Under the pieces are notes generated by a model. That model saw only the letters and a list, made by a program, of their open reading frames with translations. It was not told the DNA's origin and did not search any database. DNA of 64,000 bases, from positions 1,088,001 through 1,152,000 of the forward strand of contig CP147778.1 in NCBI GenBank assembly GCA_037305845.1. The letters are read 5' to 3'. Every line of letters begins with the position of its first letter. The first letter of the stretch is position 1. Shown here piece after piece: positions 26,536-57,065 of the stretch. Source of the DNA: Candidatus Freyarchaeum deiterrae (GTDB taxonomy: Archaea > Asgardarchaeota > Jordiarchaeia > Jordiarchaeales > Jordiarchaeaceae). The translations under genes and the position numbers were made by a program.

Positions 26536-26631
26536 AGCCAGGTGGTGTAGCGGTCAAGCATAGGGGCCTCTGGAACTCTTATGAGTAGGAGTAAGCCTCG
26601 GACAGCAGTTCGAATCTGCTCCTGGCTACCA
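26536..26631 (+). tRNA. tRNA-Gln(CTG) with a 20-nt intron at 37/38 (26574-26593) and encoded CCA
   Basis: Acceptor stem AGCCAGG/CCTGGCT, anticodon stem GGGGC/GCCTC, T-loop TTCGAAT; the intron forms a BHB-like motif (CTCT/GGAG helix, GG^A and TA^A bulges). Confidence 0.95.
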
Positions 26632-37486: not shown

Positions 37487-37834
37487 ATGGCTAAACAGGC
37501 AAAAAAGAAAAACAAGGAAGAAACTGTACCAGAAGAGAATATGGTTTTTATTGGAAAAAAACCGACAAAGTAGATTCACGTTAGTGTTCTACGTCGAATG
37601 AGTTACGTTCTGGCTTGCGTTATTCAGTTTAATCAGGGTGCGAAAGAAGTAAGAGTTGTGGCGCGTGGAAGGGCGATTTCCAAGGCTGTTGATGTTGCGG
37701 AGATCGTACGCCAGCGTTTCTTGCCTGAGGGTGTAAAATTGGGTAAGATTACTATGGGCACCGAGATTATGGGAGCTAGTGCTGACGAAAAACGTAATGT
37801 TTCCACTATTGATATTCAACTCCTAAAAGCTTAA
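37487..37834 (+). CDS. albA: Alba chromatin/RNA-binding protein, split by an intron: join(37487..37568,37599..37834), 105 aa
   Basis: GGAGGT RBS then ATG at 37487. The spliced product reads ...[17 protein letters not shown]...[15 protein letters not shown]...RNVSTIDI. Confidence 0.9.
37569..37598 (+). other. Putative 30-nt BHB/BHL mRNA intron in alba
   Basis: CGAC/GTCG 4-bp helix, AAA and AAT bulges, inner stem GTAGA/TCTAC, in-frame TAG at 37571-37573. Confidence 0.85.
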
Positions 37835-38025
37835 AAGGTCTGAATCGGAATATTTCCTAGGAGTATGGTACTATACAAGTGGAAGTCCTATTAATTTGAA
37901 CCGAGTTACTCCAGTTTTTTTAGAATTGTAAGGTTTGTAAGAATTTTTTATAACTGTAATTCGTTCAAATAGAAAATATATAGCAATAAAAGTTGAATTA
38001 ATATAAATTATTACGGGGTTAAATA

Positions 38026-38388
38026 TTGCCAAATATTGAGTATGAAAAAACAGGTAAGAAAACTAGTATACATAGTGACTCAATTCCAATAGAAACGAAG
38101 ACTCTCGAGGATGTTAGGTGCGGAAACTGCGGATTGCCTCTCCTTATCCATGTTTTTTGGAGAGGTGAGAAGTACGAGCGCATAGTTGAGTGTAAGAAAT
38201 GTGAGATAAGTTTCTCGCTGGAAGGAAATCATAAACCTATCGATACAAAAGCAAATCCTGTGGGTAGTAATGTAAATCCTATTGATGCTAAAACAAATCC
38301 TGCTAAAGAGGCCAAACCAAAACCAGCTAAGAAGAGTAACGATGACAAAAAGGAAAGTATGGTGGATCGGCTTGTTCGATCATGGTGA
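38026..38388 (+). CDS. Zinc-finger hypothetical protein with a low-complexity tail
   Basis: CGNC...CKKC followed by short NPxxxK-type repeats. Confidence 0.65.
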   Translation: MPNIEYEKTGKKTSIHSDSIPIETKTLEDVRCGNCGLPLLIHVFWRGEKYERIVECKKCEISFSLEGNHKPIDTKANPVGSNVNPIDAKTNPAKEAKPKPAKKSNDDKKESMVDRLVRSW

Positions 38389-38436
38389 TGGAAGAAAGAT
38401 GGCTTGAGATTTAATTTTTTATAGGCTAGTGAAGTC

Positions 38437-39018
38437 ATGGTAGAAAAGGTCAGATTCGAGTGTGTTAAGTGTGGTAATTGTTGCAGGGATAAGAATTTCA
38501 TAATAACAATTACGGATAAGGATACTTTTCTACTGGCTAATCATTTAAAATGTGATCTTAAAGAACTTTTATCGAAGTATATTGGTTTTTATCAGGTTAG
38601 GAAAGAACTTGAAAACAGACTAGTTTTTCCAGCTATTTCAACATATAGAGGTAATGCTTTCCTGGGATTAAGAAAGAAGAGCGATGGTTCCTGTTTGTTT
38701 TTGAGGGATGATAATCTTTGCGGAATTTATGCAGCTAGACCTATGGTGTGCCGAAGTTTCCCTTTTACTTTTGAAGTTAAGGAGGGATGGCTTTCTTGGG
38801 GTCTAATGGCGAAAGCGGAGGAGATTTGCCCAGGATTGGGACAGGGTGAAATAGTCTCTGAGGAAAGTTTAGAAAAGATGGGGAGAGAAATAATTAGGAA
38901 CCTTAAGGAGTACAGAAAAGTAGTTTCAATTTGGAACCATCACGCAAAAGTTGAGCAGCTAGACCCGGCCTTACTGGTGAAGACATTTCTCGAAGAAGCA
39001 AATCTTACTCCTCAATAA
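38437..39018 (+). CDS. YkgJ family (CxxCxxCC) cysteine cluster protein
   Basis: FECVKCGNCC, CLFL, CGIYAARPMVCRSFPF and CPGLG. Confidence 0.9.
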   Translation: MVEKVRFECVKCGNCCRDKNFIITITDKDTFLLANHLKCDLKELLSKYIGFYQVRKELENRLVFPAISTYRGNAFLGLRKKSDGSCLFLRDDNLCGIYAARPMVCRSFPFTFEVKEGWLSWGLMAKAEEICPGLGQGEIVSEESLEKMGREIIRNLKEYRKVVSIWNHHAKVEQLDPALLVKTFLEEANLTPQ

Positions 39019-39263
39019 ACTTAACAAAATATTTTTGCCAGTTAGAGAAGACTAAAATTTTGGGATAAGCGTTAATTTTGCATCAAGTTAAAAGAACTGT
39101 TAAAAAAATTAGATAATTTTAGCTCATTACCTAGGGCGAGATTGATATTAAAAATTAAATTTTGAGGCTTAAATCTATTTTTTTAGAGTTGAGGATAATA
39201 TTTAATAGCATAATTAACCATAATAAATTGGCTCTTCTTGAATTGTTGGGGAGTGAGTCAATA

Positions 39264-39767
39264 TTGAAATTAGAGGAAGCGGCTCGGAAGGCTATAGACC
39301 TTTTAAGAGAAGCAGGCGAAAGTGGAATATATAATATCGAACTTGCGCAAAAACTAAAAGTTCCAAAACGGCGCGTTTATGACATAGTGAATCCTCTTAA
39401 ACCCTTGGGGCTAGTCGAAATAAAAAAGGAAAGGGGAAAAACAAAAATCTGCTGGGCGGGGAAAACCGAGGCGGTACTTAAACCAGAAAAAGAGAAGATT
39501 CAAGAAAAAGAAAAAAATCTCGTAAAAATTGAAACCGTAAAGCTGGTAGAAGATAATCCGCTCATTGAATCAGTTACAGGAGATCAGGGAGAAGAAGGTT
39601 TTAAATTCAATTGTGCGGCGTTAAGAATAAGTTGCGGCAACGCGTTAAAAGCTTGTAGAGTGTATCACGATGGATTCGAGGTAGTTGTTGAAACTGATGG
39701 AGGGAACTTGTTAGTGAAGCCTAACTCCCTGAAACCGAAGACTCCAAAAGTAAAATCAGTATTTTAA
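39264..39767 (+). CDS. E2F/DP-like winged-helix DNA-binding protein (ORF open from 39162; likely start TTG 39264)
   Basis: LAQKLKVPKRRVYDIVNPL..LGLV...ICWAG matches the E2F/DP RRxYD signature. Confidence 0.75.
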   Translation: MKLEEAARKAIDLLREAGESGIYNIELAQKLKVPKRRVYDIVNPLKPLGLVEIKKERGKTKICWAGKTEAVLKPEKEKIQEKEKNLVKIETVKLVEDNPLIESVTGDQGEEGFKFNCAALRISCGNALKACRVYHDGFEVVVETDGGNLLVKPNSLKPKTPKVKSVF

Positions 39768-39843
39768 TCTTTAAAAATAGCCGAAAAAATTCATAAACTG
39801 AAAAGAACTGGAGTAGTCTTGAAGTAGGGGTTATAACAAAATT

Positions 39844-40221
39844 TTAAACAAGTTCCATTTTTATTCTGCTGCCTCTCTTTACTTTTTCAAATATTTCTAG
39901 ATTGCTAGTGATTTTCCCCACAATGTTTACTTGGGAATAAGGCTCAACTTCTTCAAAAAAGATGCACAATGAATCACCTTGACTCCAATAAGCTAAGGCG
40001 CCCTTCTCAACTTTTTTTGTGGGTTTCTCTAATCCCTTCTTTATACTCACAGGAAAATAAATTTCCTTTCCTTTCCAGATGTTTACTACACTAGAAATTG
40101 GAAGAGCATCTCGGAGCGCCTCTACTGTTCGAGAAGCATAAATTCTGTTTAGCTCACCCTCAGCTTCGCCTACTCTCTCGACAATAAATTTTACCCTAAA
40201 CCTTGACAAACTCTCAGACAT
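39844..40221 (-). CDS. Cyclophilin-like fold protein (DUF369/TM1367 type)
   Basis: LPISS..NIW..EIYF, GALAYW....LCIFF and VNIVGKI. Confidence 0.85.
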   Translation of the reverse strand: MSESLSRFRVKFIVERVGEAEGELNRIYASRTVEALRDALPISSVVNIWKGKEIYFPVSIKKGLEKPTKKVEKGALAYWSQGDSLCIFFEEVEPYSQVNIVGKITSNLEIFEKVKRGSRIKMELV

Positions 40222-40407
40222 AGTTGGTTACCCGAATTATTTTTCTGTGCAGAAGTAAATAAAAAAGTTTCCCATATTATTTTGTGAAACATGACACGAA
40301 GATTTCGGAGATTATTAATTTTAAAACTTTCTTAGGGAAAGAATTCAAACTCTCTTTTCTGAGCATAAACGAACTCCGGCATAACCTGTGTAGGAATTTG
40401 CGTTTTT

Positions 40408-41787
40408 TTAGAGGTAGTCTATTCCATTTTCTTTTTTGCACAAGAATTTTTCGTGGCACCATGTGAAAGATTTGTGTTTTTTGTAGATTTTGTCTATAGA
40501 ATCTATGATTTTTTCTGAAACGTTGGAACCATAAATTTTTGGAGCTTTTTTCATTATGCTAGGGACATCATTCTTGTAAATGTAATATATGAAGTCCGCT
40601 AGATTCTCTAAGGGTGGTGTGAGTATGTTTGATTCAGACATGACGGATTCTGGTCTATCCGTGTTGAAGCGACAGGTTAATGATGCGCATTCATCAATCA
40701 AATTAAGTTCTTCTTGCTGGGATCCACTATCTGTGAGACTTGCCCAGCAGTGTCCAGAGCGGAAGAATTCAATTACATTACCGTAACTTTTCCACAGAGG
40801 AGTGAATAAAAAGTTACCATTCTCTTCGGATAGTTTTTTGATCAAGTCGGTTAGACCATAATGTGTAAGTCCTGTCTTCATGGCGGTTAATTCCACAAGG
40901 CAGACGTTCATTTTGTAGTCTAAAACAAGTTTTTTTATAGCGTTAACAATGTTTTTGAATCGGGTTTCCGTGAGGTTATCTCGACGGTGCATATCAATTC
41001 TCAACCAATTATCCTGCTCAAGTTGAGGGTATATATCAAAAATACTATTTTCCGGTTTGTGATTTTTGGTGTACTCTACAGCATCTACCACACTGTTACC
41101 ACAAATTGGAATTAATTCGGGATCATACCCTTCACGAACAAGGTTCTCATAGTTAATTTCGTGTGGTGCAATAAAGCAGAAGGAACTTGAACCACATATA
41201 AAGGTGTCAATTTGTTCGGGGAATGGTTCATTTCTATCAATACACCAATCCGAAGTCCACTGACCGTTTGTAAATTCTTCAAAATCAATTGCCCCCTTCA
41301 CAAAATCAAACATGGAGCGGGGGTACATACCTCTTAATCCAGCTTCATTTTGAACACATTTTCTTCCCAGACCATAACTCCAGGCCAAGGGTACGACTCC
41401 AGCGGTTAATGTATCGCCGTGCACGCAGGGTATGAATTCTGTTTCGGGATAATTCTTTTTCAGATACCTGCCCAATTTTACCGTTTTAGAAAAGAGGTCA
41501 ACAAACTTGTCCGCCATGTCACCACGAATATTTAGATTCGCTACGAAACGTTCGTCTAAATGAAATTCTTTTAAACCGTGCCCTAAAAGCTCATCGAAGT
41601 GTTGGCCTGTGTGAACTACTCCGACAGGTTTCCCCTGTTTCTCACACTCAAGAACTAGGGGGAATTGCTTATAAAAATCAGGCTTAGTTGCCACAGTCAC
41701 TAAGAGTACATAGTCTTCGGTGGCGAGTTCCTTGATTCTATCTTCATAGATTTCTGGTTTTTGCAGGTTGATGTCCCACGAGCTCAA
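40408..41787 (-). CDS. UDP-N-acetylglucosamine 2-epimerase-like protein
   Basis: ATKPD, HTGQH, VHGDT, EAGLR, PFPEQ, HRRDN, TDSGSQQEE and TDRPE. Confidence 0.85.
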   Translation of the reverse strand: MSSWDINLQKPEIYEDRIKELATEDYVLLVTVATKPDFYKQFPLVLECEKQGKPVGVVHTGQHFDELLGHGLKEFHLDERFVANLNIRGDMADKFVDLFSKTVKLGRYLKKNYPETEFIPCVHGDTLTAGVVPLAWSYGLGRKCVQNEAGLRGMYPRSMFDFVKGAIDFEEFTNGQWTSDWCIDRNEPFPEQIDTFICGSSSFCFIAPHEINYENLVREGYDPELIPICGNSVVDAVEYTKNHKPENSIFDIYPQLEQDNWLRIDMHRRDNLTETRFKNIVNAIKKLVLDYKMNVCLVELTAMKTGLTHYGLTDLIKKLSEENGNFLFTPLWKSYGNVIEFFRSGHCWASLTDSGSQQEELNLIDECASLTCRFNTDRPESVMSESNILTPPLENLADFIYYIYKNDVPSIMKKAPKIYGSNVSEKIIDSIDKIYKKHKSFTWCHEKFLCKKENGIDYL

Positions 41788-42104
41788 GTTAAATGCCCCT
41801 TTCCCAATTTTTAACGGGATAGAACTAACTACTGACTGTAATCGTATTAATATTGGAGATATAAGATTAACTTAAAAGCTTTGGAAGAGGCAAATTGGAG
41901 TTTCAGATATTTGCTTTGATATTTTTTAAAGTAAAAGAACTATTTTTATTTTATTTCATTTGAGTTAAATTTATGTGTTTTAATACAAAAAAATTATTCG
42001 TGTAAAGAGTTAAATGTTTACTTATTGAAAAAACTTAATTGGTTTCAAACTAATATATAATAATAGACAACTTACCAAAATGATTAAAAAGTGAGGGTTG
42101 TTCT

Positions 42105-42488
42105 TTGCAAGTAACCTCTAGACTTGAAGCCCTTCAAAAACTCCTTGAGAGGATTACGAAGGAAGGTTCCCTAAAAGCTTGCGTCGTCTCTTCAATTGAA
42201 GGCTTTGTTATGGCATCCGCAGAGTCTACGGGATTTGATAAAAAAATCGCGGCGGCAATAGCTTCCTTCGCATTCTCAGCAGCTAAGAAGACAAAAAGTG
42301 AATTGGGGCTTGGAGATTTGAGGGATGTTTTAATAAGATGCACAGAAGGCAAAGCTGTTTTCAGGGCGGTAGAGGTATCTCCGAGTGAATCATTTATACT
42401 CTCAGCCATTATTCCTCCTCAAACCAGATATTATAACAGAAGAATCAATATGGCCGCGCGGGAAATTAAAAAACTCTTTTTAGAGTAG
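42105..42488 (+). CDS. Roadblock/LC7 domain protein
   Basis: VVSSIEGFVMAS...IAAA...ELGLG pattern. Confidence 0.85.
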   Translation: MQVTSRLEALQKLLERITKEGSLKACVVSSIEGFVMASAESTGFDKKIAAAIASFAFSAAKKTKSELGLGDLRDVLIRCTEGKAVFRAVEVSPSESFILSAIIPPQTRYYNRRINMAAREIKKLFLE

Positions 42489-42614
42489 AATTCTTTTTTT
42501 AAAAGTTGACAGTTGTGTAGAAATAAATACGGGTCGGATTCAGCTCTTTTAGAAATCGTTATAACCGAATTTTTTTCTTATGATATTTTTAGGAGTTAAT
42601 GGAGAAGGTTTTAC

Positions 42615-43322
42615 GTGTATAAAAAGGCTGAAACCATTATTTCAGTTCTAAAAAATCTAAGAGAAATAAAAACGCTCGATATTGAAGTTTTCAGAAGTAT
42701 AGTAGAAGATCCAGATCTTTTCAACTTGTTGACTACAAAAGGATATAATGATTCAGTCGAACAAAGGATTACCTTTGATTCTGAGTCTGTACTTCAGATA
42801 TCACTAGTCGCCCTAGAATATGGTGCAGATGTAGAAGAGGTTTGCAAACTATTAAGCTGGAAAGAATTTGAAGCTTTTTCAAAAAGTGTACTGGAAAAAA
42901 ACAATTATTTTTGCATCCAAAACTTTAGATTTAAACACAATCAAAAACGGTATGAAATAGATGTCGTAGGTTTTAAAAAACCATTGATACTGTGCATTGA
43001 TTCCAAGCATTACAAAAAATCAGGTAGGAGTAATGTTTTAAGAACTTACTGTAAAAAACAAATCGAGAGAATTGAAGCCCTTTCAAAAGTTTTGCCTGAA
43101 ATGGTTTCAAAATTAAGATTAATTGAATGGAAAGAAGCAAAAATAATACCTTTAATAGTCACACTACTAGCCGAAGACATAGATTTTTCGGAAGGAGTTC
43201 CCGTAATTCCATTTTTTAAACTTAACAATTTCATTGTGGAGTTGCCAGCGCACATTTCCGAAGTACATCAGATTCACACGAAATTCCCCAAGTACACCAG
43301 GCTAGAAGATTATAGGGCATAA
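42615..43322 (+). CDS. PD-(D/E)xK restriction-endonuclease-like (Mrr/NERD) protein
   Basis: WKEFE, YEIDVVG, CIDSKHY and KQIER. Confidence 0.8.
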   Translation: MYKKAETIISVLKNLREIKTLDIEVFRSIVEDPDLFNLLTTKGYNDSVEQRITFDSESVLQISLVALEYGADVEEVCKLLSWKEFEAFSKSVLEKNNYFCIQNFRFKHNQKRYEIDVVGFKKPLILCIDSKHYKKSGRSNVLRTYCKKQIERIEALSKVLPEMVSKLRLIEWKEAKIIPLIVTLLAEDIDFSEGVPVIPFFKLNNFIVELPAHISEVHQIHTKFPKYTRLEDYRA

Positions 43323-43525
43323 ACTTGAACGCGGTATATGTTCATAATAAAATATTATTTGTGAGGTAATAGATGATCACGCAGCAACCCACGTGAATGC
43401 GATTAAATACATCCGTCGGATAAGATACAGCAAAGCCATTCTCGGCGGGCTGCACCACCATTATTTTCGGTTTCGGGAGGTTGCGTAACAGACGAAATTA
43501 TTCACCTCCACGAGGTTCATATTTT

Positions 43526-44017
43526 TCATATAAAAAATTGTATTATATTATAATTAGCAATATTTTTAGCAAGGTCTAATGGTGAAACATCATAGTTATT
43601 TTTCAAATCTCTATTTGCCCCATTTGATAATAATATCTTTATTAAATCTCCCCTACCTCTTGACCAAAAAACAGCTGTCGATAACGGAGTATTGCCGTAA
43701 TTATCTTTAAGGTCAACCTCTGCATTATTTTCTATCAAGTATTTTGCTATTTCTGGTAAATATTCTGAAGCTGTAAAATGCAGAGCGCTCCAGCCCGCTG
43801 AATCTTGTAAATTTATATCTGCCCCCATTTTGATGAGCGCTTTTATGATTTCTATTTTATTATCAACGACTGCATGCATTAATAGTGTCCTTTCATCCCT
43901 ATCACGAAAATTTATATTAATTCCTTCATTTATTAGCTCTGTTAAAGATTTCAAATCTCCTTTATCAACAGCTGCAATAACTTTTTTTTGATCAGTTCTC
44001 TTTGTACTCATACTCAT
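43526..44017 (-). CDS. Ankyrin-repeat protein, probable toxin immunity protein
   Basis: Ankyrin repeats (GWSALHF, GNTPL, GADIN); the start overlaps the end of the upstream GH-E-like ORF. Confidence 0.85.
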   Translation of the reverse strand: MSMSTKRTDQKKVIAAVDKGDLKSLTELINEGININFRDRDERTLLMHAVVDNKIEIIKALIKMGADINLQDSAGWSALHFTASEYLPEIAKYLIENNAEVDLKDNYGNTPLSTAVFWSRGRGDLIKILLSNGANRDLKNNYDVSPLDLAKNIANYNIIQFFI

Positions 44018-44183
44018 GACTCCAATTTGATTTTGGACTTTCAATCTGATATGAATATGGATTATTCATACGTTTTTTAAATTCTTTTTGTAAGTCCTTC
44101 AAATTGAGCTTTAGTTTTTCGTTTCGAAATTCATGTCCACGTTTGTGCCATAAATCATATTTTCCTTGAATTACTTGTTGCAT
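43992..44183 (-). pseudogene. Orphan or degenerate GH-E type HNH/EndoVII nuclease toxin tip
   Basis: YDLWHKRGHEFR...EF...MNNP..YQIESPKSNWSHEYE resembles the GH-E motif; G is replaced by W; GGAGG RBS. Confidence 0.65.
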
Positions 44184-44246
44184 AAACTATCCTCCGATTA
44201 TTCATCATTTTTTGAACTATACCCATGGTTTGGAATTATTTGAAAG

Positions 44247-44783
44247 TTAGATAGCAGACATTATTTCCGTGAATACTTTTTGATAGACCTCGTCTCTGTT
44301 ATTTCTCGTCAAGTTGAGTATCTCTACATCCTTCCTTTTCTTAACTTCATCAACAAAAGGGTGTTGAACATTTTTTCCAATTGTTCCCAATATAGGTTTT
44401 GAGGAATCAAATGCTTCACGCACCGCAACGACAAACTCTGATGCAAATAACTCCATCTTTCCAATTTCATCAATCACAATCAAATCTGCTTTATCAACCG
44501 CCTGAATAAGTCCCTTCACCCCTATATTTTGGATATTTTCAATAATCACACCATATTTACCTACTCTGTACCGACTCCTCACATCGACCTTAGCTAAAAA
44601 ATCCTGTTCTCCAGTCAGAAGATTAACTATAAGAAAACCTACGCGGATATTTTTATCACGCACCTCAGGTGTAATCACACCTCCAACTATCCGGTTACGA
44701 GACCGAACTTCTTCAATAATTTTGTTGATTAAGCTGCTTTTTCCAACTCCTGGAAGCCCTGTAATCAACAAATTAACTTTCAT
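44247..44783 (-). CDS. Nucleoside-triphosphatase, THEP1 family
   Basis: ITGLPGVGKS, RVGKYGV and IDEIGKMEL. Confidence 0.92.
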   Translation of the reverse strand: MKVNLLITGLPGVGKSSLINKIIEEVRSRNRIVGGVITPEVRDKNIRVGFLIVNLLTGEQDFLAKVDVRSRYRVGKYGVIIENIQNIGVKGLIQAVDKADLIVIDEIGKMELFASEFVVAVREAFDSSKPILGTIGKNVQHPFVDEVKKRKDVEILNLTRNNRDEVYQKVFTEIMSAI

Positions 44784-44899
44784 TCAGTTTTCACCCCATG
44801 AAATATATCTTAAAACAATGCTAAGAGAAACAAATAAAACTTCATAGACTCTCATCTATAAGCGACTCGGTTTAATATTACTCATTTGCCAAAATGTAA

Positions 44900-45631
44900 T
44901 TGCATGTCCTACCCTTAAACAATAAGCTTGATATTCTTTCGGAGAGATATAAAGTTATTAAATCCAAAATGTCAAATTCGGAGAAATGTTTTATGAGAGA
45001 GGAGGACGAACGTTTACGGAGAAGCGCAATCCGCTTGGTTGCGGATATTCAAGGTGTTCAGGGAAGCTTTGAGTTTGAAGTGACTTCTTTTTTTGAGAGG
45101 CTGCGTAAAGAGCTTTTAGAAAGTGAAAAAACAGTTTTTAGTAACGTCGAGATGAATAGAGTTCTTACACGCTTACAGGATTTAGTAACTGATCTCCTAA
45201 ATCAAATAGTGGATAAGATTTCTGTCGAGGCGGTAAAACAGATTCAAATAGCATTGGGAAACTTGAAGGATGTCCGAGAATCTGAGTCGTTAGCTGAAAA
45301 AACGACTTCAGTAGCAAAGAAGGAAGCCTTGGATTATAGATTTAACAAATATGTTGTAGGCCTGGAGACCCGTGTTAAAGCCCTTGAAGAAAACGAAATT
45401 GCCAGAAAAAACTGGTTAAGAAAAGTGCTAAGCCATGATAAGAAGTATAAAATTCTGAGTTTACTGGAAAAGGAAAAATCGATGGATTACGCAGAAATTT
45501 CCAAACAACTCTCACTCACCAAATCAAAAGTGAGAGAATATATTACGGAGTTAGAAAAAAACAACCTCATCTTTGTAGACAAAACAAAAAAACCATATTC
45601 AGTTACACTCAAACAAACCCTATGGGTTTAG
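44900..45631 (+). CDS. Coiled-coil protein with C-terminal wHTH (start uncertain)
   Basis: HTH pattern EISKQLSLTKSKVREYITELEKNNLI. Confidence 0.7.
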   Translation: MHVLPLNNKLDILSERYKVIKSKMSNSEKCFMREEDERLRRSAIRLVADIQGVQGSFEFEVTSFFERLRKELLESEKTVFSNVEMNRVLTRLQDLVTDLLNQIVDKISVEAVKQIQIALGNLKDVRESESLAEKTTSVAKKEALDYRFNKYVVGLETRVKALEENEIARKNWLRKVLSHDKKYKILSLLEKEKSMDYAEISKQLSLTKSKVREYITELEKNNLIFVDKTKKPYSVTLKQTLWV

Positions 45632-45684
45632 CCACTTTTGAACCAATTTAAGTACATAAATTAGCTTAGGAGGATTAGGATTAA

Positions 45685-45987
45685 ATGGTTCGAATAATCG
45701 TGGAGTATTTCTTCAATCCAAATTCAACCGAATGTAAAAACTACATGAAAATTGTAGTAAACCCACTAATCAGAGAACAAATGAAAGAAGTGGAATGGAG
45801 AATAATCAATATTTATGACCCGAAAGAAAAGGAAAAAATGGAAGAGTATAAAATAAATGCCGTACCAGCTCTGGTGGTTAACAAAAAAAGAATTCTTATA
45901 GGATACAAAACTCAAAAGGATGTAAAATCCGTGATACAGGAAGAAATAGAATATGAGAGAAAAAGGAGAGAAGTTAAACTCGGCTAA
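45685..45987 (+). CDS. Thioredoxin-fold protein (SxxC variant)
   Basis: FFNPNSTECK and YKINAVPALVVN cis-Pro loop. Confidence 0.75.
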   Translation: MVRIIVEYFFNPNSTECKNYMKIVVNPLIREQMKEVEWRIINIYDPKEKEKMEEYKINAVPALVVNKKRILIGYKTQKDVKSVIQEEIEYERKRREVKLG

Positions 45988-46172
45988 TTTCTAAAGAGAT
46001 ACCATGTTAAATTTTCCCCTTTTTTTCCCCGCCATTTTTTGCGACACCTCAACATAGTACGCAGCGTCTTTAACTATACCTAATACACCACAATTAAGAC
46101 AGAATACAGAACCAATCTAACCAGCAGCCAGTCCCCCAATATTAGTCGTATATATCGGGTGAAACTAAGCTA

Positions 46173-46637
46173 TCAAAGTTCAGCTCCACAGTTCGGACAA
46201 ATTGTTTCTGTTTCTAAAACTTTGGCTCCACAATATTTGCAGCGAGTAAACACAACTTCCCCTTTTTCAACCACTTCCCTAACTACTGGTCGTGGCTCCG
46301 TGCTAACTCCTTGAGTTTCATTCCAAGGCTCGGTCTCTGTTGTATAATTTCTCTGATTTCTCGAAGACACTGCGCCTAACATTGCAAGTATTATCGAAAT
46401 TGTAATAGTAAATATTCCTATGTACAATGTCGAGTTCCAAGGCAATAACTGTGAGTTTGTGTTCGAAATTAGAAAATAAACATATATGGCAGTCTCAGTA
46501 GGAGACAAAAAAGGAGGTATATCTGTCGGCATATTACCATTAACTGAGAAAATGTTGAATATGGATATTAGTATGACTGTTAATCCTATACAGAATAAGG
46601 TTAATCCTATTGTAAGGCTTTTCTCCACATCAGTCAC
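46173..46637 (-). CDS. Two-TM protein with C-terminal zinc ribbon
   Basis: Two hydrophobic segments and CKYCG...CPNCGA. Confidence 0.75.
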   Translation of the reverse strand: MTDVEKSLTIGLTLFCIGLTVILISIFNIFSVNGNMPTDIPPFLSPTETAIYVYFLISNTNSQLLPWNSTLYIGIFTITISIILAMLGAVSSRNQRNYTTETEPWNETQGVSTEPRPVVREVVEKGEVVFTRCKYCGAKVLETETICPNCGAEL

Positions 46638-46736
46638 TCTCGTGTGCGGCCAAAAGGCTCCGTTTATGACCCTCTTATAATTTACTTAGTATATATTCTT
46701 TTTGATTTGGCGTCTAGCAAATTAGACACATAAAGT

Positions 46737-48668: not shown

Positions 48669-48766
48669 ACACTATAATTAAACGTGGTATAGATTTTTAT
48701 CTGTTAGTTTGCGATTAGAGCGCTCCCGCTATAGAGCCGTTATAAGTACTATTCAATGGATACGTC

Positions 48767-49981
48767 TTATTTTTGAGTCTTTTCCCACTCCACTTCCTTT
48801 CTTCTTACTCTGAAAAATAAAATATTCTGGTAAAGAACCAAAAAGGATAAGGGCACGAAGTAGAGCCAAGCTCTAATCTTTCCAAGTCTTATACAAAAGA
48901 TGAGAGCGCCTAGACCATTCCAAAAGCTCGTTCCTAAACAAAGGAGGAATAGGGGTAGAACTTCGTGGTAAAATAGGCCAAGAGCTAGTGTGATTGGTAG
49001 GAGGGCTAGGCATACTGCGTTTAGTGATGGAGCGATGTATCTAGCGGAGAATGATAGGAAGTTCGGAATTCGAGGTTTTGGGAACATTTTCAAGCGTAGG
49101 TGACTATACTTTGCTGTGGCTTGGTCTGATCCTCTGCTCCATCTCCTTCTCTGTCGGACAAAATCCTTTAAGGAAGGAGGTTCAAGCACCTTTACTCCGG
49201 GCTCATCCGTGTATACTATTCTATAGCCGTCGGCGTAGATTCTGTACCATAATTCATGGTCCTCTGCCAACATTTCAGGATCCCAGCCTCCAGTTTGCTC
49301 GAGGTAGGAACGCCTCACAGCGTAGTTGTATCCGATTAGAGCCGGTGTGGCTACTAGTTGTCCTCCCTGCCAGAGTGTGTACTCAAGGTCGATTGTTCGA
49401 CTGAGAGTGTTACGCCTTTCAGCTTCGTATCTTCCCTGGACCGCCATTACCTCTGGTTTGTCAAAGTGCTTAACAAGGTTCACTACTGAGTTTGGATTAA
49501 TACTGCAATCCGCATCATATATTGCGACTATTTCTCCTTTCGATACTGATAGTGCTTCGTTTAAACCGTAGGCCTTTGTGAGCCGCTTTTTGTGTTTTAT
49601 TCGCTTCGCGTTTTTCCAATTTTTTGTTTTTTTCTCAATAATTTTGAAGGTGGAATCGGTTGAGTCGTCAACAAAAACGAACTCAATTTTGTCTTGAGGG
49701 TAGTTCAAGTTACCCAGGCTATCCAAAACACGTTCAACATTTTTCTCCTCATTGTAAGAGGGTACAATTACTGTAACTGTCGGTAAATTCTTTTTTTCAT
49801 CCACTGTTCTTCTTCTCCTTTTGAAAATAGAAGCTAGGGCGGTAAGAACATAAATGAGGGGAACTACTGCCAGAAATATTCCTAAAAAGATGTAAACCAC
49901 AATAAGTATCCAAGGTAAGTCGAATATCCGAAGTATATTGAATATCCAGGGAAAGTTGAATATCCAAGGGAGACATGGCAA
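48767..49981 (-). CDS. Membrane GT2 glycosyltransferase (cellulose-synthase-like)
   Basis: PSYNEE, DADC, AED and QRRRW, with TM helices. Confidence 0.9.
   Translation of the reverse strand: MPCLPWIFNFPWIFNILRIFDLPWILIVVYIFLGIFLAVVPLIYVLTALASIFKRRRRTVDEKKNLPTVTVIVPSYNEEKNVERVLDSLGNLNYPQDKIEFVFVDDSTDSTFKIIEKKTKNWKNAKRIKHKKRLTKAYGLNEALSVSKGEIVAIYDADCSINPNSVVNLVKHFDKPEVMAVQGRYEAERRNTLSRTIDLEYTLWQGGQLVATPALIGYNYAVRRSYLEQTGGWDPEMLAEDHELWYRIYADGYRIVYTDEPGVKVLEPPSLKDFVRQRRRWSRGSDQATAKYSHLRLKMFPKPRIPNFLSFSARYIAPSLNAVCLALLPITLALGLFYHEVLPLFLLCLGTSFWNGLGALIFCIRLGKIRAWLYFVPLSFLVLYQNILFFRVRRKEVEWEKTQK
49904..49975. repeat. Four imperfect 18-bp tandem repeats encoding PWIFNF-like units
   Basis: GAATATCC core recurs at 18-bp spacing. 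Confidence 0.7.
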
Positions 49982-49983
49982 TT

Positions 49984-50901
49984 TTACTTTCTCCTAATGA
50001 TTTTTTCAATTTTTATCATGCTATCCAAAGTTTTCAATGGTTCTTTTGCGAGAAGGGCTGGAGCAAGATATCCTGCGGCGTAGAATAAATGGCATAAGAG
50101 GTTTGGTCTCCAAAATGCCAAGTATCCGTATAGAGATGCAAGTAGGAGTCCCACATTAATTATGGTTTTGCTAAGATTTCTACCGTAGAGATAATAATCG
50201 CCCACACTTATCATGTAGGCTCTTTTAAGCATATTTTCAATTTCTATGCGGTCCCTCCAAACTTTATGGAGAACCTCAGCTTTGGGGGCATAAACAACTC
50301 TATGCCCAGAGTCCCGCACTCTATTACTTATACTGATTTCTTCACCAAAAACCTTTACACCATGTGGACCCAGTTGCTCTTTAAACCCTCCAATTTTTAG
50401 TGCTAAATCCTTTCTAATTGCTAGGTTTCCTCCAATTGGAAAGTATATGTCCTTACTCTTTTCTCCCAAATTTGTGATACCCAGGATTCCATAGACATCC
50501 TTTCCAAGCCATCTCGGCTTCTCGACTCCCACCATTAGTAGACTTATTTTCCCTCCAACACATCCAACAACCTCATCTTCAAAAGCACTAATAATTTCTT
50601 TCAACCAGGATTTAGTTGTGATGCAATCATCATCAACAAATGCCACTATGTCACCAGCAGCGATTTTGAGTCCATAATTTCTCGCGGCAGCTATTCCTAT
50701 TCTCTTGGAAGGTCTTACAATTTTAACATTTGAAAAACCCGAAAATTTTGATTTAAGCGCTTCAAAGCTTCCATCTTCGGACCAATTATCAATAACAATA
50801 ATTTCATAATCGCCTTTAAAGTTCTGATGAATTACACTCTCCACACAATCCAATACGTGGTCTTTTCTATTGAAGGTTAGAATAACTACTGATGAAATCA
50901 T
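49984..50901 (-). CDS. GT2 glycosyltransferase
   Basis: IIVIDN.SED, AARNYG and FVDDD. Confidence 0.9.
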   Translation of the reverse strand: MISSVVILTFNRKDHVLDCVESVIHQNFKGDYEIIVIDNWSEDGSFEALKSKFSGFSNVKIVRPSKRIGIAAARNYGLKIAAGDIVAFVDDDCITTKSWLKEIISAFEDEVVGCVGGKISLLMVGVEKPRWLGKDVYGILGITNLGEKSKDIYFPIGGNLAIRKDLALKIGGFKEQLGPHGVKVFGEEISISNRVRDSGHRVVYAPKAEVLHKVWRDRIEIENMLKRAYMISVGDYYLYGRNLSKTIINVGLLLASLYGYLAFWRPNLLCHLFYAAGYLAPALLAKEPLKTLDSMIKIEKIIRRK

Positions 50902-51174
50902 GATAAATTACCCTTCGTACTTAGTATTGCACTCTTTTTTTTATTTTTCGGAAAATATTTATCCATTTTTAGAGTGTACTACCTAAAAGAAGTATTAATA
51001 AGACCTTCCTTAAGAAAGGGAGTAAAAAGTAGCAATCAAGAACATCAAAAAAAATAATTATTAATTGCGGTCAGAATGTTCAGAGGGTAAATTTTGCTAA
51101 TAAAAAGGTTTTAAAATAATTTATAATTAAGTACGAGAGTGAAAATTTCGAAAAGTAGCATGAGGAGATAGTAA

Positions 51175-52095
51175 ATGGTGTTGTCCGTTTCCGTTGTTTT
51201 ATGTGCGTATAATCGTAAGAATGATGTAACGGAGTGTTTGGAGAGTATTCTGAAGCAGAATTATCCCAATTTTGATGTGTGGGTTGTGGATGATGCTTCA
51301 ACTGATGGAACTTATGAATTTTTGAAAAAGAAGTTCGGAGACAATAAAAAGCTTCACATTATTAGAAATGATACGGAAATGGGAAACACCAGTTCTAGGA
51401 ACATGGTTATGCATGAATCTAAGGGAGAAATCCTAGTCTCCACGGACGATGACTGTATAGTACATCAAAACTGGATAGCGAACCTAGTTAAAGAGTTTGA
51501 GAAATCACCGCAAATAGGTCTTGTAACCGGAAAAGTGCTTCCCATATTTTATAAAGAGGTTCCTCAATGGTTGGAGCCTCCGATCTACCCTATACTGGCA
51601 ATAAGAACAGAAAATCAGCGTACTGAAGCGCTGAATCCTTATGGTTGTAACATGGCGGTACTTAGAAGTGTTATGGAGAAAATAAACTATCTGAATGAAG
51701 ATATTACCAGAAAATATGGCGGCTTATATTCTGGAGAGGATACAGATCTAGGATTAAGAGTGAGAGCGGCGGGATATAAGATAATTTACACTCCTGAAGC
51801 TGCGGTTGAACACAAAATGTTTCCAGAACGTTTAACAAAAGAACATTTTATTAGACGAGCTCTATACTTTGGCATGTCCGAACAAGTCTACGCTGGTTCA
51901 AACATGTGGAAATTGCTGGATGGCGCCGCCAATATAATAATATTCCTGTTCAAGTATATTGTGAAAACAAGATTCTCAACTTTAACACTCATAGCCTACA
52001 AAACGGGTTTTATGATCAAAGCACTAGGAGGAGACGAAGTGGCTCTTGAGAGATGGAGAAAATGGTTCATGCGCCTAGCCCAAAAAACTAAGTAA
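51175..52095 (+). CDS. GT2 glycosyltransferase
   Basis: VVDDASTD, STDDD, GCNMA and GEDTD. Confidence 0.9.
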   Translation: MVLSVSVVLCAYNRKNDVTECLESILKQNYPNFDVWVVDDASTDGTYEFLKKKFGDNKKLHIIRNDTEMGNTSSRNMVMHESKGEILVSTDDDCIVHQNWIANLVKEFEKSPQIGLVTGKVLPIFYKEVPQWLEPPIYPILAIRTENQRTEALNPYGCNMAVLRSVMEKINYLNEDITRKYGGLYSGEDTDLGLRVRAAGYKIIYTPEAAVEHKMFPERLTKEHFIRRALYFGMSEQVYAGSNMWKLLDGAANIIIFLFKYIVKTRFSTLTLIAYKTGFMIKALGGDEVALERWRKWFMRLAQKTK

Positions 52096-52196
52096 ATCCA
52101 AGTTTTAAAACAAAAATCCAAATCAAATAGCAAGACAATAAATGTTTAGAAATTCAGGTATTTTTAAAAAATATACTTTGGCTTAAAAAATTTGGA

Positions 52197-52553
52197 ATGG
52201 TGTTTTTGATGGAAGATTTTGAAATTTACTGTTTTGCCGAAAAAATGAAGACACTTTCAATTATTTTTTCATCTATCCTCACGAGGTACTCGAACTATCT
52301 GAACGATAATAAGGAACCAGAACCAAAGGAAATTATTTGGTGGGTGCTAGATGAGATTTGCCGCGAAGCCAGTATAGCTGTCAATGTTACAAAATCCCAG
52401 CTTCTTTCTAATGCATTAGACCTATTTAATGAAGCTGGAGAAAGTGTGACCGCAGGCAATGTTGAAGAAGCAATCAGAAAAATAGCCCAAGCAACAACGA
52501 GAATTACCACCGAGGCTGATAAAACTTTACGAAAAATAGAAAGGAAAAAGTAG
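52197..52553 (+). CDS. Hypothetical helical protein
   Basis: 118-aa ORF. Confidence 0.6.
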   Translation: MVFLMEDFEIYCFAEKMKTLSIIFSSILTRYSNYLNDNKEPEPKEIIWWVLDEICREASIAVNVTKSQLLSNALDLFNEAGESVTAGNVEEAIRKIAQATTRITTEADKTLRKIERKK

Positions 52554-52662
52554 GAAAAACTACCTACTCACCAATTGGATATGCCAAGTTCTCTTAGGTT
52601 CAATTAATACGTTAGTAGCAGATACCGCTATTCATTGTTTTTTGAAGTGGCTAGTTGTTACC

Positions 52663-53223
52663 CTACGAAGCTGTGACATCCATGAACAAAAGCATGTGAT
52701 AGTTTCCGTTCGCGGTAAAGAGATTTGGACGATTAGAGCTATTGTCCAGATGGTTATATAGTCCTACCAATCCGAAACACTCGTCAACAATGCGATAACC
52801 GCTCGGCCACACGTTCTTTAATAGACCGCCGTATATGAATAAGCTCACGTTTCCTTCTATGTTACTTAAAGTAATACTCGGCGTGTAATAATCCATAGGT
52901 ACAAAGTGCCACCCAGTGGTTCCGTTACCCAGTACTACTCCAGGTGTTATAGTGCCCGATGTTGTGTTTGATGCTAAAACTGCGAACAGCATTACGTCGC
53001 CGCTCTCTTGAATGTAATATGTTTTAAAGCTGATAGTGAGACTGAAAGGCCCCTGTTTGGCTCCAATATCTTTAGCATTCACTTGGGAAGCGCTTGGGAT
53101 ATAGGCGTAAGGATTCGTAGCGGAATAAGTACCCGAAGAACCTAGGGGTGTAAGAATAAACACTGAGAAGGTCAACGCAATCATAACAGTTAGTAGTACA
53201 CCAATTAGCCTTTTTTTATTCAT
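52663..53223 (-). CDS. Secreted or membrane-anchored hypothetical protein
   Basis: MNKKR followed by a hydrophobic signal-like segment. Confidence 0.7.
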   Translation of the reverse strand: MNKKRLIGVLLTVMIALTFSVFILTPLGSSGTYSATNPYAYIPSASQVNAKDIGAKQGPFSLTISFKTYYIQESGDVMLFAVLASNTTSGTITPGVVLGNGTTGWHFVPMDYYTPSITLSNIEGNVSLFIYGGLLKNVWPSGYRIVDECFGLVGLYNHLDNSSNRPNLFTANGNYHMLLFMDVTAS

Positions 53224-53315
53224 TTCTGCTCACATCCGTTAATATAATCACTGTTATTTTAAGACTATAGGGCTTAATTATAGGTTTGCTATTAGGCAAA
53301 GGAGAATAAAAAGTT

Positions 53316-53831
53316 TTAGGTGTCCCCATTATTTATATGTTTGTCTCGAACTGTTTTCACTGTTTCTAAAAGAAGGACTTCTATTCCCTCACCGCTTTTA
53401 GCATTAATAGTGACCACTTGTGTATCGAGATCCTTTAAGATATCCTTTATTTCATCGGTTGCTGGAGTCTCTTCAGGATTTTTCTTATTCACCACCACTA
53501 TGGTAGGCACCTTTTTATCTTCTACTAGTTCTTCATAGATCTCACGTGCTTTTGAAAAAGATTCCCGATCACTACTGTCCACTACTAAAAGTAAAGCATT
53601 CATACCCTTGGACAAAGATTTTCGAACTACTGAAAACCGGTCAGATCCCGGAGTTCCAAAAAAGTGAAGCCGTGAATCATTCACATCACAATAGGTGTAA
53701 TCCATACCAACAGTAGAACCCTCACACTCCATCCGAATAGATTCCTTTCCGCTGAATTCGGCTAATTTTGAAACCATTTCCGTTTTGCCACTTGCCTTCG
53801 GCCCAGCCACCACAACCTTAAAATGGGTCAT
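53316..53831 (-). CDS. Small GTPase (MglA/Arf-like)
   Basis: G1 GPKASGKT, TVGMD, G3 variant FGTPG, G4 NKKN and G5 NAK. Confidence 0.88.
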   Translation of the reverse strand: MTHFKVVVAGPKASGKTEMVSKLAEFSGKESIRMECEGSTVGMDYTYCDVNDSRLHFFGTPGSDRFSVVRKSLSKGMNALLLVVDSSDRESFSKAREIYEELVEDKKVPTIVVVNKKNPEETPATDEIKDILKDLDTQVVTINAKSGEGIEVLLLETVKTVRDKHINNGDT

Positions 53832-54122
53832 TAAATTCCCTCTATAACCCTAAATTTTATTAATTAATCAACGTCATTTACCGATAAATAACTTTCGCTA
53901 ATATTAAAAAGCAGTGCTTCGCAGGAAAAGTAGCCTCACTGAATGAAGCGAAAATGATTAACAAAATATAGAATATGAAAACTTAAAGGAAATATCCCAC
54001 AAAACGCTGTAATATAGAAAGAGTTATGATATTTATTTTTGTAAAAGACAAAATTTTTGATAACTTTTAGAGAATTTAACCCTCTAAGTTGTTATTTTTG
54101 GGTATAATTAGAGATTGGAGGA

Positions 54123-54178
54123 GCAACCCCTTGCGGGGGTGTCCCCGATGTCTTCCCTTTCGGGTTTCGGACAGCGGA
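54123..54178 (-). promoter_or_regulatory. Candidate SECIS-like structure plus a second GNRA hairpin in the vhuU 3' UTR
   Basis: Minus strand reads UGUC-CGAAA-CCC-GAAA-GGG-AA-GACA, then CCCC-GCAA-GGGG, starting right after the vhuU stop. Confidence 0.6.
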
Positions 54179-54328
54179 TCAATCAGAGCCTATCACAATC
54201 TCTTTGTTCACGATCTCCTTACCCTCTTCATCGAGGATAATGAGATGGGCGGAACATGAGAGTCAGCAGTCATAGGATCGCATAACCATTTCCAGTAGGT
54301 TAAGGACCTTTGGGTCTATTTCGGGCAT
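54179..54328 (-). CDS. vhuU: Selenocysteine-containing hydrogenase small peptide VhuU/MvhU (UGA at 54263-54265), 49 aa
   Basis: MPEIDPKVLNLLEMVMRSYDCULSCSAHLIILDEEGKEIVNKEIVIGSD supplies the C-terminal Ni-binding motif missing from the upstream large subunit; GGAGG RBS. Confidence 0.9.
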
Positions 54329-54357
54329 ATTTTCCTTATCCTCCAGATTTTTTGTTC

Positions 54358-55671
54358 TTAAGTTTTTATCATGGGTTCGGGTAACTTCAATTTTTCAAGA
54401 ATCTTATCCTCAAATATTTGCTTAGCCGTCACTAGGATTGATTTTTCCACTGTGGCTATGTTATGATTGGTGGCAACAATGAGGTTTGCTTTGGTGCATA
54501 TTCCGTTGTCATCTGACCAGTAGTGATGTATAAGTGTTCCACGAGGAGCTTCTAATATGCCTGCACCATTACCCTGTTTAGGCTCCACATCTGCAAGCTT
54601 AACATCGGTACTGACTATATCGGGGTCTTCAAGTAGAATCTTTGCTTTCTCTACAGCTTCAACCAGTTCAACTATCCTAGCCCAGTTATAAGCTAGGGTA
54701 GCATTGCATGGTCTGCCAACAGTATCCCTATATTCCTTGAATGCCTCCTGAGCCAGAGGAGTCTCCATTTTTTCGACAACATTTAGGCGTGGCAAAGGCC
54801 CTGCACGCCAAATTCCGTCTGGATAACCCGCCGGCTTATAGAATATGTGTGTCGCATAGGAGTAAGGTGCTACGTGTTCAGCTATGTATTCCAAATAATC
54901 TTTCTTCGGGAAATCTGCAACAATTTTACCTTCGGGACTCATAACCCTGACCGTTGCCTTCCCAAAGATGGTGTGCACGCCTTCATTGGCAATACCTACG
55001 TGGTATGAATCAAAAACTCCTAGCTTTGTTATAACATCTAGGTAGTCTGTAACAACCTTCTTAGCAAGGTCTACAGTAAAGTTGGTGAGTTCCAGTGCCT
55101 TGTCAATCCTTTTTAACTGTTCATCGCGTTCCTCCTCTGTCAGAGATTTAGACTGACCTCCAGGAACAGAAGTGACTGGATGTATAGCTCTTCCACCTAT
55201 AAGGAAGCAAAGTTCCTGTCCAATTCTCATCAATTCCAGTGCTTTTTTACCCACATCAGGTAGATTTTTAATTACTGTAATCACGTTACGGTATTTCGGC
55301 TCAGCGAGAGGACCTAACAGAAAGTCTGGCGCAGCTAAGGCATAAAAGTGTAAAGCGTGACTGGAAATATATTTTGCCTGTAAGAGGAGTTCTCTAAGCT
55401 TTAACGCGGGCAGGGGTGGAGTAACATCCCAAGCAGTCTCAACAGCGCTTACCGCTGCTAGGTGGTGAGCCTCGGGGCAGATACCGCAAATCCTTGGCGC
55501 TATTCGAATCACCCGGTCGAGATTACGGCCTTCTAGGAATTTTTCAAAGAAACGTGTGACTACTACACCGAAATGGGCGTCTTCTACTGTGTTATTTTTG
55601 CCTAGCTTTATTACGATTTTTCCGTGTCCCTCAAGTCTGGTTGCTGGTTCAATAACAATTTCTTTACTCAT
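54358..55671 (-). CDS. mvhA: Group 3c [NiFe] hydrogenase large subunit lacking the C-terminal motif (VhuA type)
   Basis: TRLEGHG, RICGICPEAH and EAPRGTLIHHY; no terminal DPCxxC. Confidence 0.92.
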   Translation of the reverse strand: MSKEIVIEPATRLEGHGKIVIKLGKNNTVEDAHFGVVVTRFFEKFLEGRNLDRVIRIAPRICGICPEAHHLAAVSAVETAWDVTPPLPALKLRELLLQAKYISSHALHFYALAAPDFLLGPLAEPKYRNVITVIKNLPDVGKKALELMRIGQELCFLIGGRAIHPVTSVPGGQSKSLTEEERDEQLKRIDKALELTNFTVDLAKKVVTDYLDVITKLGVFDSYHVGIANEGVHTIFGKATVRVMSPEGKIVADFPKKDYLEYIAEHVAPYSYATHIFYKPAGYPDGIWRAGPLPRLNVVEKMETPLAQEAFKEYRDTVGRPCNATLAYNWARIVELVEAVEKAKILLEDPDIVSTDVKLADVEPKQGNGAGILEAPRGTLIHHYWSDDNGICTKANLIVATNHNIATVEKSILVTAKQIFEDKILEKLKLPEPMIKT

Positions 55672-55674
55672 ATT

Positions 55675-56586
55675 TTATTTCGCCTTCCTTACGGTTTTTG
55701 ATACTATGCCCGATGGCAGGAAGTAGGTATAAAAGGTTCCGGCAACATCACCGACTCTTTTTACAAGTTCCTCTGGGCTTATTGCCTCATAATCTACTAT
55801 GGAGCCCAGTGCGCTAATCATCTTGGCTCCTTGGTCTATTACATTCGGTCCTGGACCGTAGCATCCCGTACAGGGCGATCCCGCCCTTGTACACAAGGCA
55901 CCGCAGCCTTCACGTGTCGCGGGCCCCATGCAAACGTATCCCTGTTCCAATAAGCACTTCTTTGGATCCGGTATCCCTTCATAGTCTCTCTTTAACTGTT
56001 TAATAGTTATTACTTGGGATTTTTCTCTTGGACACTCGTCACATAGAGTACGAGTTGGTGGTGGCGGTAGCTCGCCTTTCAACAGACCCACTAATGCGTC
56101 TGCAATGTTCTGTGAAGTTACCGGACAACCGGGTAGGAAAACTTCAAAATTCACTATTTTTTTGTTAGGCACAATAAAGTCTAACATCTTTGGAATATCT
56201 TCATCAGGAATAGAAGGTTCTTCAAGACTTTCTGCTTCCATAAATTTACGTTTGAAAGCTTCATCCATAGTAGAAAGATTAAGCAATCCGTAGATTCCAC
56301 CATAGGTGGAACAGCTGCCCAATGAAATCAGAGTTTTAACCTTCGCCCTCAAAGTCTTTAAGATGTGTACATCTTCCTCTGTCCTGCAGACACCTTCAAC
56401 AATTCCGACATCGATTGAGCCGTCCTTGTAACTCTCTAAATCCTTGTACTTGAAGTCGGTCACTACATGCCAGAAGACAATGTCCAACTCCGGCAGAATG
56501 GGTAGCAGGCCTTCGTAATTATCTAAAAACGATTGGTAACAACCCCAACAACTGGCCAACGAAACCATAGCTACTTTAACAGGCAT
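55675..56586 (-). CDS. mvhG: F420-non-reducing hydrogenase small subunit
   Basis: SCWGC, GSCSTYGG, LPGCP, CLLEQGYVCMGPAT and PCTGCYGP. Confidence 0.92.
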   Translation of the reverse strand: MPVKVAMVSLASCWGCYQSFLDNYEGLLPILPELDIVFWHVVTDFKYKDLESYKDGSIDVGIVEGVCRTEEDVHILKTLRAKVKTLISLGSCSTYGGIYGLLNLSTMDEAFKRKFMEAESLEEPSIPDEDIPKMLDFIVPNKKIVNFEVFLPGCPVTSQNIADALVGLLKGELPPPPTRTLCDECPREKSQVITIKQLKRDYEGIPDPKKCLLEQGYVCMGPATREGCGALCTRAGSPCTGCYGPGPNVIDQGAKMISALGSIVDYEAISPEELVKRVGDVAGTFYTYFLPSGIVSKTVRKAK

Positions 56587-56605
56587 TGTTCAAAACCTCC
56601 AAATT

Positions 56606-57065
56606 TTACTCCTTATCTTTTCTGAGCGGACTAGGTCCCAACTCCTTCAGTTTTTTCACAAAATCGTTCATAACTTCAACTAAAACATTACCTTCACTGG
56701 CTGAAATCCACTCCAACCTTAATCTCTCGGGTTCAATACCGAGCTGTTCAATTAACTTTTCGAGAAGTCTAATTCTCTCCTCAGCCCTGTAGTTTCCAGT
56801 AACATAGTGACAGTCACCGTGATGACACCCCGCTATAAGCACACCATCAGCACCCAATTCAAAAGCTTTCAAAACAAACTGAGGATCGACACGACTACTA
56901 CACATAACCCGAATAAACCTAGCATTTGAGGGATACTGCATCCTACTAGTACCCGCCATATCAGCGCCGGCATATGAACACCAATTCTGCGCCATGTAGA
57001 CAAATCTACGAAGCTTTGCAGAAGATGCCGACAATTCTTGGTTTAAATTCTCCGTCATTACCCAT
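56606..57065 (-). CDS. mvhD: MvhD [2Fe-2S] subunit, split by an intron: complement(join(56606..56984,57016..57065)), 142 aa
   Basis: The spliced product reads [28 protein letters not shown]...RVMCSSRV...GCHHGDCHY; GGTGA RBS upstream of 57065. Confidence 0.9.
56985..57015 (-). other. Putative 31-nt BHB/BHL mRNA intron in mvhD
   Basis: CTGC/GCAG 4-bp helix, AAA and AAT bulges, inner GCT/GGC and GTAGA/TCTAC stems, in-frame TAG and a frameshift. Confidence 0.87.

Follow-up and report, generated by a model that had tools for sequence, protein, structure and literature searches.

Two conserved genes, alba and mvhD, in a 64,000-nucleotide (nt) stretch of the Candidatus Freyarchaeum deiterrae genome (contig CP147778.1, positions 1,088,001 to 1,152,000; hereafter the window) are interrupted by inserts of 30 and 31 nt, which are almost certainly real introns of the bulge-helix-bulge (BHB) type and members of a genome-wide set that is united by structure. 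Sequence comparison makes it likely, to a high degree, that both would be pre-messenger RNA introns removed by the transfer RNA (tRNA) splicing machinery, as two members of that set, and very probably many messenger RNAs (mRNAs) of this organism need splicing. The host is a Freyarchaeum-type Asgard archaeon (Jordarchaeia); its genome is a single contig of 3,576,204 nt, and close homologues are labelled Freyarchaeota or Jordarchaeaceae. An earlier note, made from the letters of the window, had proposed both inserts as introns; their positions and lengths, and the helix, bulges and hairpin of each, are confirmed, and a cut after the second base of each bulge restores both proteins exactly. The features, numbered within the window, are as follows.

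37487..37568, + strand: alba exon 1, 27 codons plus the A of a Met codon (from intron-less orthologues and exon-joined contigs)
37569..37598, + strand: alba BHB intron, 30 nt, with an in-frame TAG (from orthologue alignment and joined contigs)
37563..37599, + strand: whole alba BHB motif, central helix 37563-37566 with 37593-37596
37567-37569, 37570-37592 and 37597-37599, + strand: 5' bulge, inner stem and 3' bulge of the alba motif
37599..37834, + strand: alba exon 2, annotated alone as a truncated Alba of 78 amino acids (aa) with its ATG at 37598
57016..57065, - strand: mvhD exon 1, 16 codons ending in Cys plus the AA of an Asn codon (from orthologue comparison)
56985..57015, - strand: mvhD BHB intron, 31 nt, a frameshift with a TAG in the exon-1 frame (from orthologues and joined contigs)
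56984..57021, - strand: whole mvhD BHB motif, central helix 57021-57018 with 56990-56987
57017-57015, 57014-56991 and 56986-56984, - strand: 5' bulge, inner stem and 3' bulge of the mvhD motif
56606..56984, - strand: mvhD exon 2

With the insert in place, the alba frame stops after 28 codons; without 37569-37598, it yields a 105-aa Alba containing IGKKPTMSYVLA. The central helix is a perfect four base pairs (CGAC/GTCG), the bulges are AA^A and AA^T, an inner hairpin is present, and the outer helix is a single C-G pair, which makes this a relaxed BHB motif. Eight of ten relatives carry an intron of 27-40 nt at the same codon, with the helix kept and the sequence replaced. The 30-nt version sits at the identical base in all five other genomes of the genus (G006-G010); in the sister family, introns of 27, 28 and 40 nt, with interiors unlike those of the genus, occur in G004, G001 and G005, and the intron is cleanly absent from G002 and G003 (intron-less orthologues L009 and L010). 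The central helix is invariant in 10/10 intron-bearing sequences, and the bulges vary only at base 3 of the 5' bulge and base 2 of the 3' bulge, on the intron side, the exon-side bases being fixed. Pairing holds in 98 of 100 pair cells but in only 11-48% after sliding of the partners, and at two inner positions both sides of the pair have changed; because the sequences are kin, the 98/100 is descriptive and not a probability.

At mvhD, removal of 57015-56985 gives a 142-aa MvhD with the usual N-terminal start. The central helix is again a perfect four base pairs (CTGC/GCAG), with an inner hairpin between the bulges AA^A and AA^T. The UAG stop that had been noted in both genes is in frame in alba and lies in the exon-1 frame of mvhD. 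The mvhD intron is missing from orthologues in four genus genomes (90-92% identity) and from all five sister-family genomes, intron-free orthologues spanning 77-92% identity overall; it is found in four independent assemblies, this one and three more, with substitutions that keep the stem. Its recurrence in three further assemblies, together with its absence from orthologues, makes it a younger gain within one subclade and not an assembly error.

Could the motif arise by chance? Across the genome, N4-AAAG..C-N4'-AAT on its own is no more frequent than in shuffled sequence; the motif alone therefore proves nothing, and the case rests on homology comparison. The pattern scan that the earlier note had proposed was dropped, as its matches stood at shuffle background, but the homology-based searches that replaced it did find a class; an ab initio scan for BHB motifs plus coding potential was also dropped, being too noisy alone. 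A spliced aligner blind to BHB structure (gap 10-160 nt; queries, the proteins from 95% of sister-family genome G004 plus the genome's own paralogues) returned 38 well-supported frame-breaking inserts, 12 of them BHB by score, where 0.76 would be expected if inserts of those lengths were placed at other points of the genes; in-frame, stop-free inserts are not enriched (4 vs 2.3 expected). Most of the disruptive inserts that do not score as BHB are CRISPR-array artefacts; CRISPR-like arrays of one repeat family lie at genome ~28-33 kb, 80-83 kb and 2.675-2.680 Mb. The census of G004 gave 10 BHB inserts vs 0.36 expected, and, with BHB pairing built into the search, 20 sites were supported vs 1 under decoy pairing rules.

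A search of the two genomes together found six sites common with G004, in pcm, kae1, a leuC/aconitase-like gene, hypD, an endoQ-like gene and cbf5; gatE, rps26e, queE and a radical-SAM gene were also added to the list. Five further candidates common to both genomes were rejected, one in hdrA as a selenocysteine TGA with no intron and four as gene-junction artefacts. The curated list holds at least 27 introns in 25 genes, including alba, mvhD, cbf5 and rtcB, with two introns in some hosts, as the guess at a genome-wide class had foreseen; it is a lower bound in which a few members are supported by one alignment. Host names besides alba, mvhD and rtcB were read from conserved motifs rather than family searches, and three hosts are unnamed. 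Lengths run from 20 to 73 nt (median 31) and fall in all three frames, and 8/8 in-frame introns hold a stop; none of the introns found is both in frame and stop-free, detection being biased toward frame-breaking inserts. G004 (L085-L184) has ~20 BHB introns in other genes, whose hosts by motif include EF-2, IF-2, eIF2-gamma, L44e, a DnaG-type primase, leuD and a small GTPase (two introns).

All 27 introns lie within genome 987,000-2,637,000, an arc with 68% of the G004-conserved sequence (naive P ~7e-5, 25 genes), which may mirror where the most conserved genes are located. The rps26e intron (genome 2278919-2278949; sequence confirmed) has a CGCGAT direct repeat on its flanks, set around a palindrome, which may be a vestige of its origin. 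Gene callers do hide the introns, as had been suspected: public entries give Alba at 73-86 aa, MvhD with a wrong-frame N-terminus and RtcB at 418-441 aa. Some public gene calls (L187; P0007, P0055, P0064, P0065) read the TAG of the alba intron as Gln and translate the intron into products of 117-118 aa; introns can thus cause false genetic-code assignments. The final intron base plus TG (window 37598-37600) forms ATG, TTG or GTG in every intron-bearing alba, and a start codon at this junction means that unspliced RNA could yield truncated Alba.

Clusters of public proteins also hold full-length, intron-free products beside the truncated ones. For a congener at 71-78% nucleotide identity, contigs of Logan run SRR28530383 carry the alba, mvhD and rtcB introns, and contigs of SRR28530378 and SRR28530379 differ from them only by the missing 30, 31 and 29 bases, respectively. 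These joined contigs (L192, L193 and L186 for alba; L196, compared with intron-bearing L197, for rtcB) have 0 mismatches over 13,155, 8,041, 6,774 and 4,161 nt, and ~24 kb are identical overall. A second species in SRR28530378 is without the alba intron and otherwise has 4 mismatches in 1,057 nt relative to intron-bearing G009. A pattern scan of JGI sequence found one unspliced alba and no joined copy. The simplest reading is that SRR28530378 and SRR28530379 would be RNA runs; as evidence of splicing, the joined contigs are strong if not final.

Several points weigh against splicing as we see it. The two runs may be DNA libraries. The joined contigs share ends with intron-bearing contigs and cross divergent promoters, and they therefore need DNA-like background coverage; they also derive from the congener and not from this genome. 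The BHB score is a heuristic made for this analysis, and for neither RNA is the BHB fold the one of lowest predicted energy, lying 0.6 kcal/mol above the minimum for alba and 2.9 kcal/mol above it for mvhD. The splicing case rests on contig- and sequence-level evidence.

What would remove such introns? An EndA and RtcB inventory, suggested in the earlier note, finds two EndA genes and one rtcB encoded in the genome. EndA alpha aligns over its length with PDB 3p1z_B and retains the catalytic His, which 3ajv_B carries in mutated form; at position 44 of the 3ajv_B chain it has a Lys, the residue of the L1 (CSL) loop linked to relaxed specificity. The second EndA gene gives weak beta-subunit matches and has no His at the matching place; the two subunits would pair as alpha and beta. 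The sole rtcB found is itself interrupted by a 29-nt BHB intron (L033:2749-2777, - strand; genome ~1,452,800) with a G.A mismatch in the central helix, and the relatives have a 30-nt version with a perfect central helix. The intron directly follows the Asp codon of PDAHQGYG in 6/6 genus genomes and is found nowhere in the sister family; the preceding Pro codon reads CCC wherever the intron is present and CCT in the four genes without it.

Across 131 Asgard genomes, rtcB is mostly intact around the PDAHQGYG region. In two genomes of another Asgard family, G113 and G068, a related 29-nt BHB intron lies elsewhere in rtcB, at GGVG^YDINCG (L198:259-287, + strand; L199, - strand); G068 has two rtcB matches. 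Broken rtcB matches in G129, G029 and G072 were rejected as contig ends. RtcB open frames of ~970-1015 aa, split near the same region, in G041, G047, G117, G063, G034, G084, G123 and G013 are probably inteins.

In the mechanism that we propose, the base of the transcript hairpin would pair with the last four exon bases and leave two staggered 3-nt bulges; the two-subunit EndA would cut after the second base of each bulge, RtcB would join the exons, and full-length Alba or MvhD would be made only after joining. For a short hairpin insertion to survive in a conserved gene, its 3' end would have to pair with those four exon bases. Introns would have been gained at different times and persist through a relaxed-specificity EndA that is busy with intron-rich tRNAs, with synonymous positions in the helix freezing afterwards (rtcB CCC versus CCT). 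Splicing would probably be constitutive rather than regulated. The rtcB intron would make new ligase depend on existing ligase, a circularity that may be harmless or may be used.

Might the introns be real and yet serve as a regulatory switch, with splicing capacity gating a set of genes and the rtcB intron closing a feedback loop? The earlier note had proposed such co-regulation by analogy with HAC1 and XBP1, whose non-spliceosomal mRNA splicing by IRE1 involves an endonuclease and a tRNA ligase (RtcB in animals). The rtcB intron of all six genus genomes, the separate rtcB site in two genomes of the other family, the frame break or stop in every intron found and the coexistence of unspliced and joined contigs are all compatible with a switch. 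However, the hosts are functionally unrelated and intron presence is patchy even within the genus, the two-genome search found only six shared sites, to which alba is added, and detection itself favors frame-breaking inserts; we therefore consider a switch unlikely. The HAC1/XBP1 comparison is an analogy of chemistry alone: that splicing differs in its nuclease, its twin stem-loop motif, its one target and its stress control, and here the predicted cuts lie in BHB bulges rather than in IRE1-type twin stem-loops. A broader proposal, in which Jordarchaeia run a non-spliceosomal mRNA splicing system throughout the genome and dozens of core genes are controlled through the capacity of EndA/RtcB, the rtcB intron (gained separately at two Asgard sites) serving as feedback, we regard as doubtful; if true, it would be a regulated intron layer in prokaryotic relatives of eukaryotes.

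The earlier note also saw a common sequence design and possible mobility, and the data do not bear this out. Among 23 introns, 4 start with AG and 11 end in GAA. The GTAGA/TCTAC core occurs in two, alba and mvhD; the shared GTAGATT..TCTAC stem is thus present in that pair but at chance level across the 23, and the core is replaced in the sister-family alba orthologues. One could still imagine a single mobile family marked by the GUAGAUU..UCUAC stem, with the alba intron, at a distance of 19 kb, as the source of the mvhD copy: a 7-mer and its partner arm occur in both (P ~0.04 for that pair alone), and mvhD is the younger gain. Nevertheless, 8 of the 253 intron pairs share a 7-mer vs 8.7 expected, the alba-mvhD pair was picked after the fact, BLAST of the 23 introns turned up no further copy in the genome (matches of 17 and 14 nt fall in unrelated sequence), and the introns, at 20-73 nt, contain no open reading frame; such a family is very unlikely. 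The same BLAST of 23 introns is what covers copying from tRNA introns to mRNA introns. The HD-hydrolase intron has one 10-mer and one 9-mer match slightly above null (0.15 and 0.46 expected), which may reflect occasional copying. Rfam had no match in the window, and no group I/II ribozyme core is seen. The introns recur in shape and in their A-rich bulges; they are not a sequence family.

A third alternative holds that the inserts are never spliced, that they are pseudogenizing or polymorphic DNA, and that the joined contigs are DNA of an intron-free strain or artefacts of assembly or template switching. The genome does hold three intact alba paralogues, the alba and mvhD junctions carry 2-3 nt of microhomology, and the library type leaves room for DNA. 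Yet the only rtcB found is interrupted, the exons are conserved, and structure is kept as sequence turns over; nor is strain DNA a plausible source of three exact losses within ~24 kb of otherwise unchanged sequence and of the second species in the same run. At rtcB, the missing bases have no microhomology at their ends and allow a single placement, the predicted BHB cut, and template switching at direct repeats is therefore excluded there. Altogether, we find this alternative most improbable. Barely credible is the idea that no splicing is needed and that ribosome restart or read-through yields a truncated Alba from 37598 and an alternative-frame MvhD, for, despite the start codon at the alba 3' junction in all orthologues and an open alternative frame across the mvhD insert, these products would lack both Alba's conserved first strand and the initial Cys of CxWC in MvhD, the introns differ in length across all three frames, and joined contigs exist.

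Other features touch on these introns and their neighborhood.

54358..56586, - strand: mvhG/vhuG-like and mvhA/vhuA-like hydrogenase genes, uninterrupted, directly 3' of mvhD
26536..26631 (genome 1114536-1114631), + strand: tRNA-Lys(CTT) with a predicted 20-nt intron (ARAGORN)

The hydrogenase genes form a probable operon with mvhD, and the tRNA-Lys(CTT) intron is predicted to be an ordinary substrate of the same enzymes. An hdrC-like gene has a 39-nt BHB intron with in-frame stops at genome 1152345, 345 nt past the end of the window and ~7 kb from the mvhD intron. In-frame TGA codons at Cys positions of MvhD-like domains and HdrA (L036, L037; genome ~1,248,070) mark probable selenoproteins.

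How does this set compare with known systems? Two archaeal mRNA cases are given as known in a 2023 review, cbf5 and the HVO_1309 leader intron (PMC10485636). The latter, in Haloferax volcanii, is an EndA-cleaved BHB in an mRNA, placed in the 5' untranslated region where it leaves the frame unbroken (PMC7714728; PMC10485636). In the literature searched, cbf5 is the only archaeal coding region previously known to have such an intron, and a search that missed most subscription journals found no paper on Asgard mRNA BHB introns. The closest parallel within these lineages comes from tRNA: introns interrupt 92-95% of the tRNA genes in the complete Freyarchaeum genome of 3.58 Mbp (PMC11291895), and the non-canonical tRNA introns of Freyarchaeia, Jordarchaeia and Atabeyarchaeia share with ours the lineages, the motif and repeated independent gains (PMC11291895; bioRxiv 10.64898/2026.10.13.758758). 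Those studies concern tRNA genes only and found no general arrival route, and the text of the October 2026 preprint (bioRxiv 10.64898/2026.10.13.758758) has no occurrence of 'mRNA' or 'cbf5'. Datable gains such as that in mvhD allow the birth of an intron to be studied, a question that is open even for tRNA introns.

The cbf5 pre-mRNA intron of Desulfurococcales and Sulfolobales (PMC2738675; Watanabe 2002 and Yoshinari 2006 cited there) is the nearest known type. The mechanism is the same, and the likeness takes in a short coding-region intron, a relaxed BHB motif cut between bulge bases 2 and 3, a two-subunit EndA and lineage-specific loss; this genome's own cbf5 intron lies at the crenarchaeal position, after the first base of the catalytic Asp codon. 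The practical consequence is that Asgard annotations and gene-content analyses hold systematically truncated or wrongly started proteins. Archaeal mRNA splicing has been described as a rarity; here, ~25 genes, and ~20 in a relative, would depend on it, single-copy genes such as rtcB among them, and prokaryotes close to the ancestor of eukaryotes would tolerate many coding-region introns without a spliceosome. Whereas crenarchaeal cbf5 is one gene with one ancestral site, the Freyarchaeum set extends over 25 or more unrelated genes, some of which have two introns, includes gains as recent as one genus subclade, and counts the ligase gene among its hosts.

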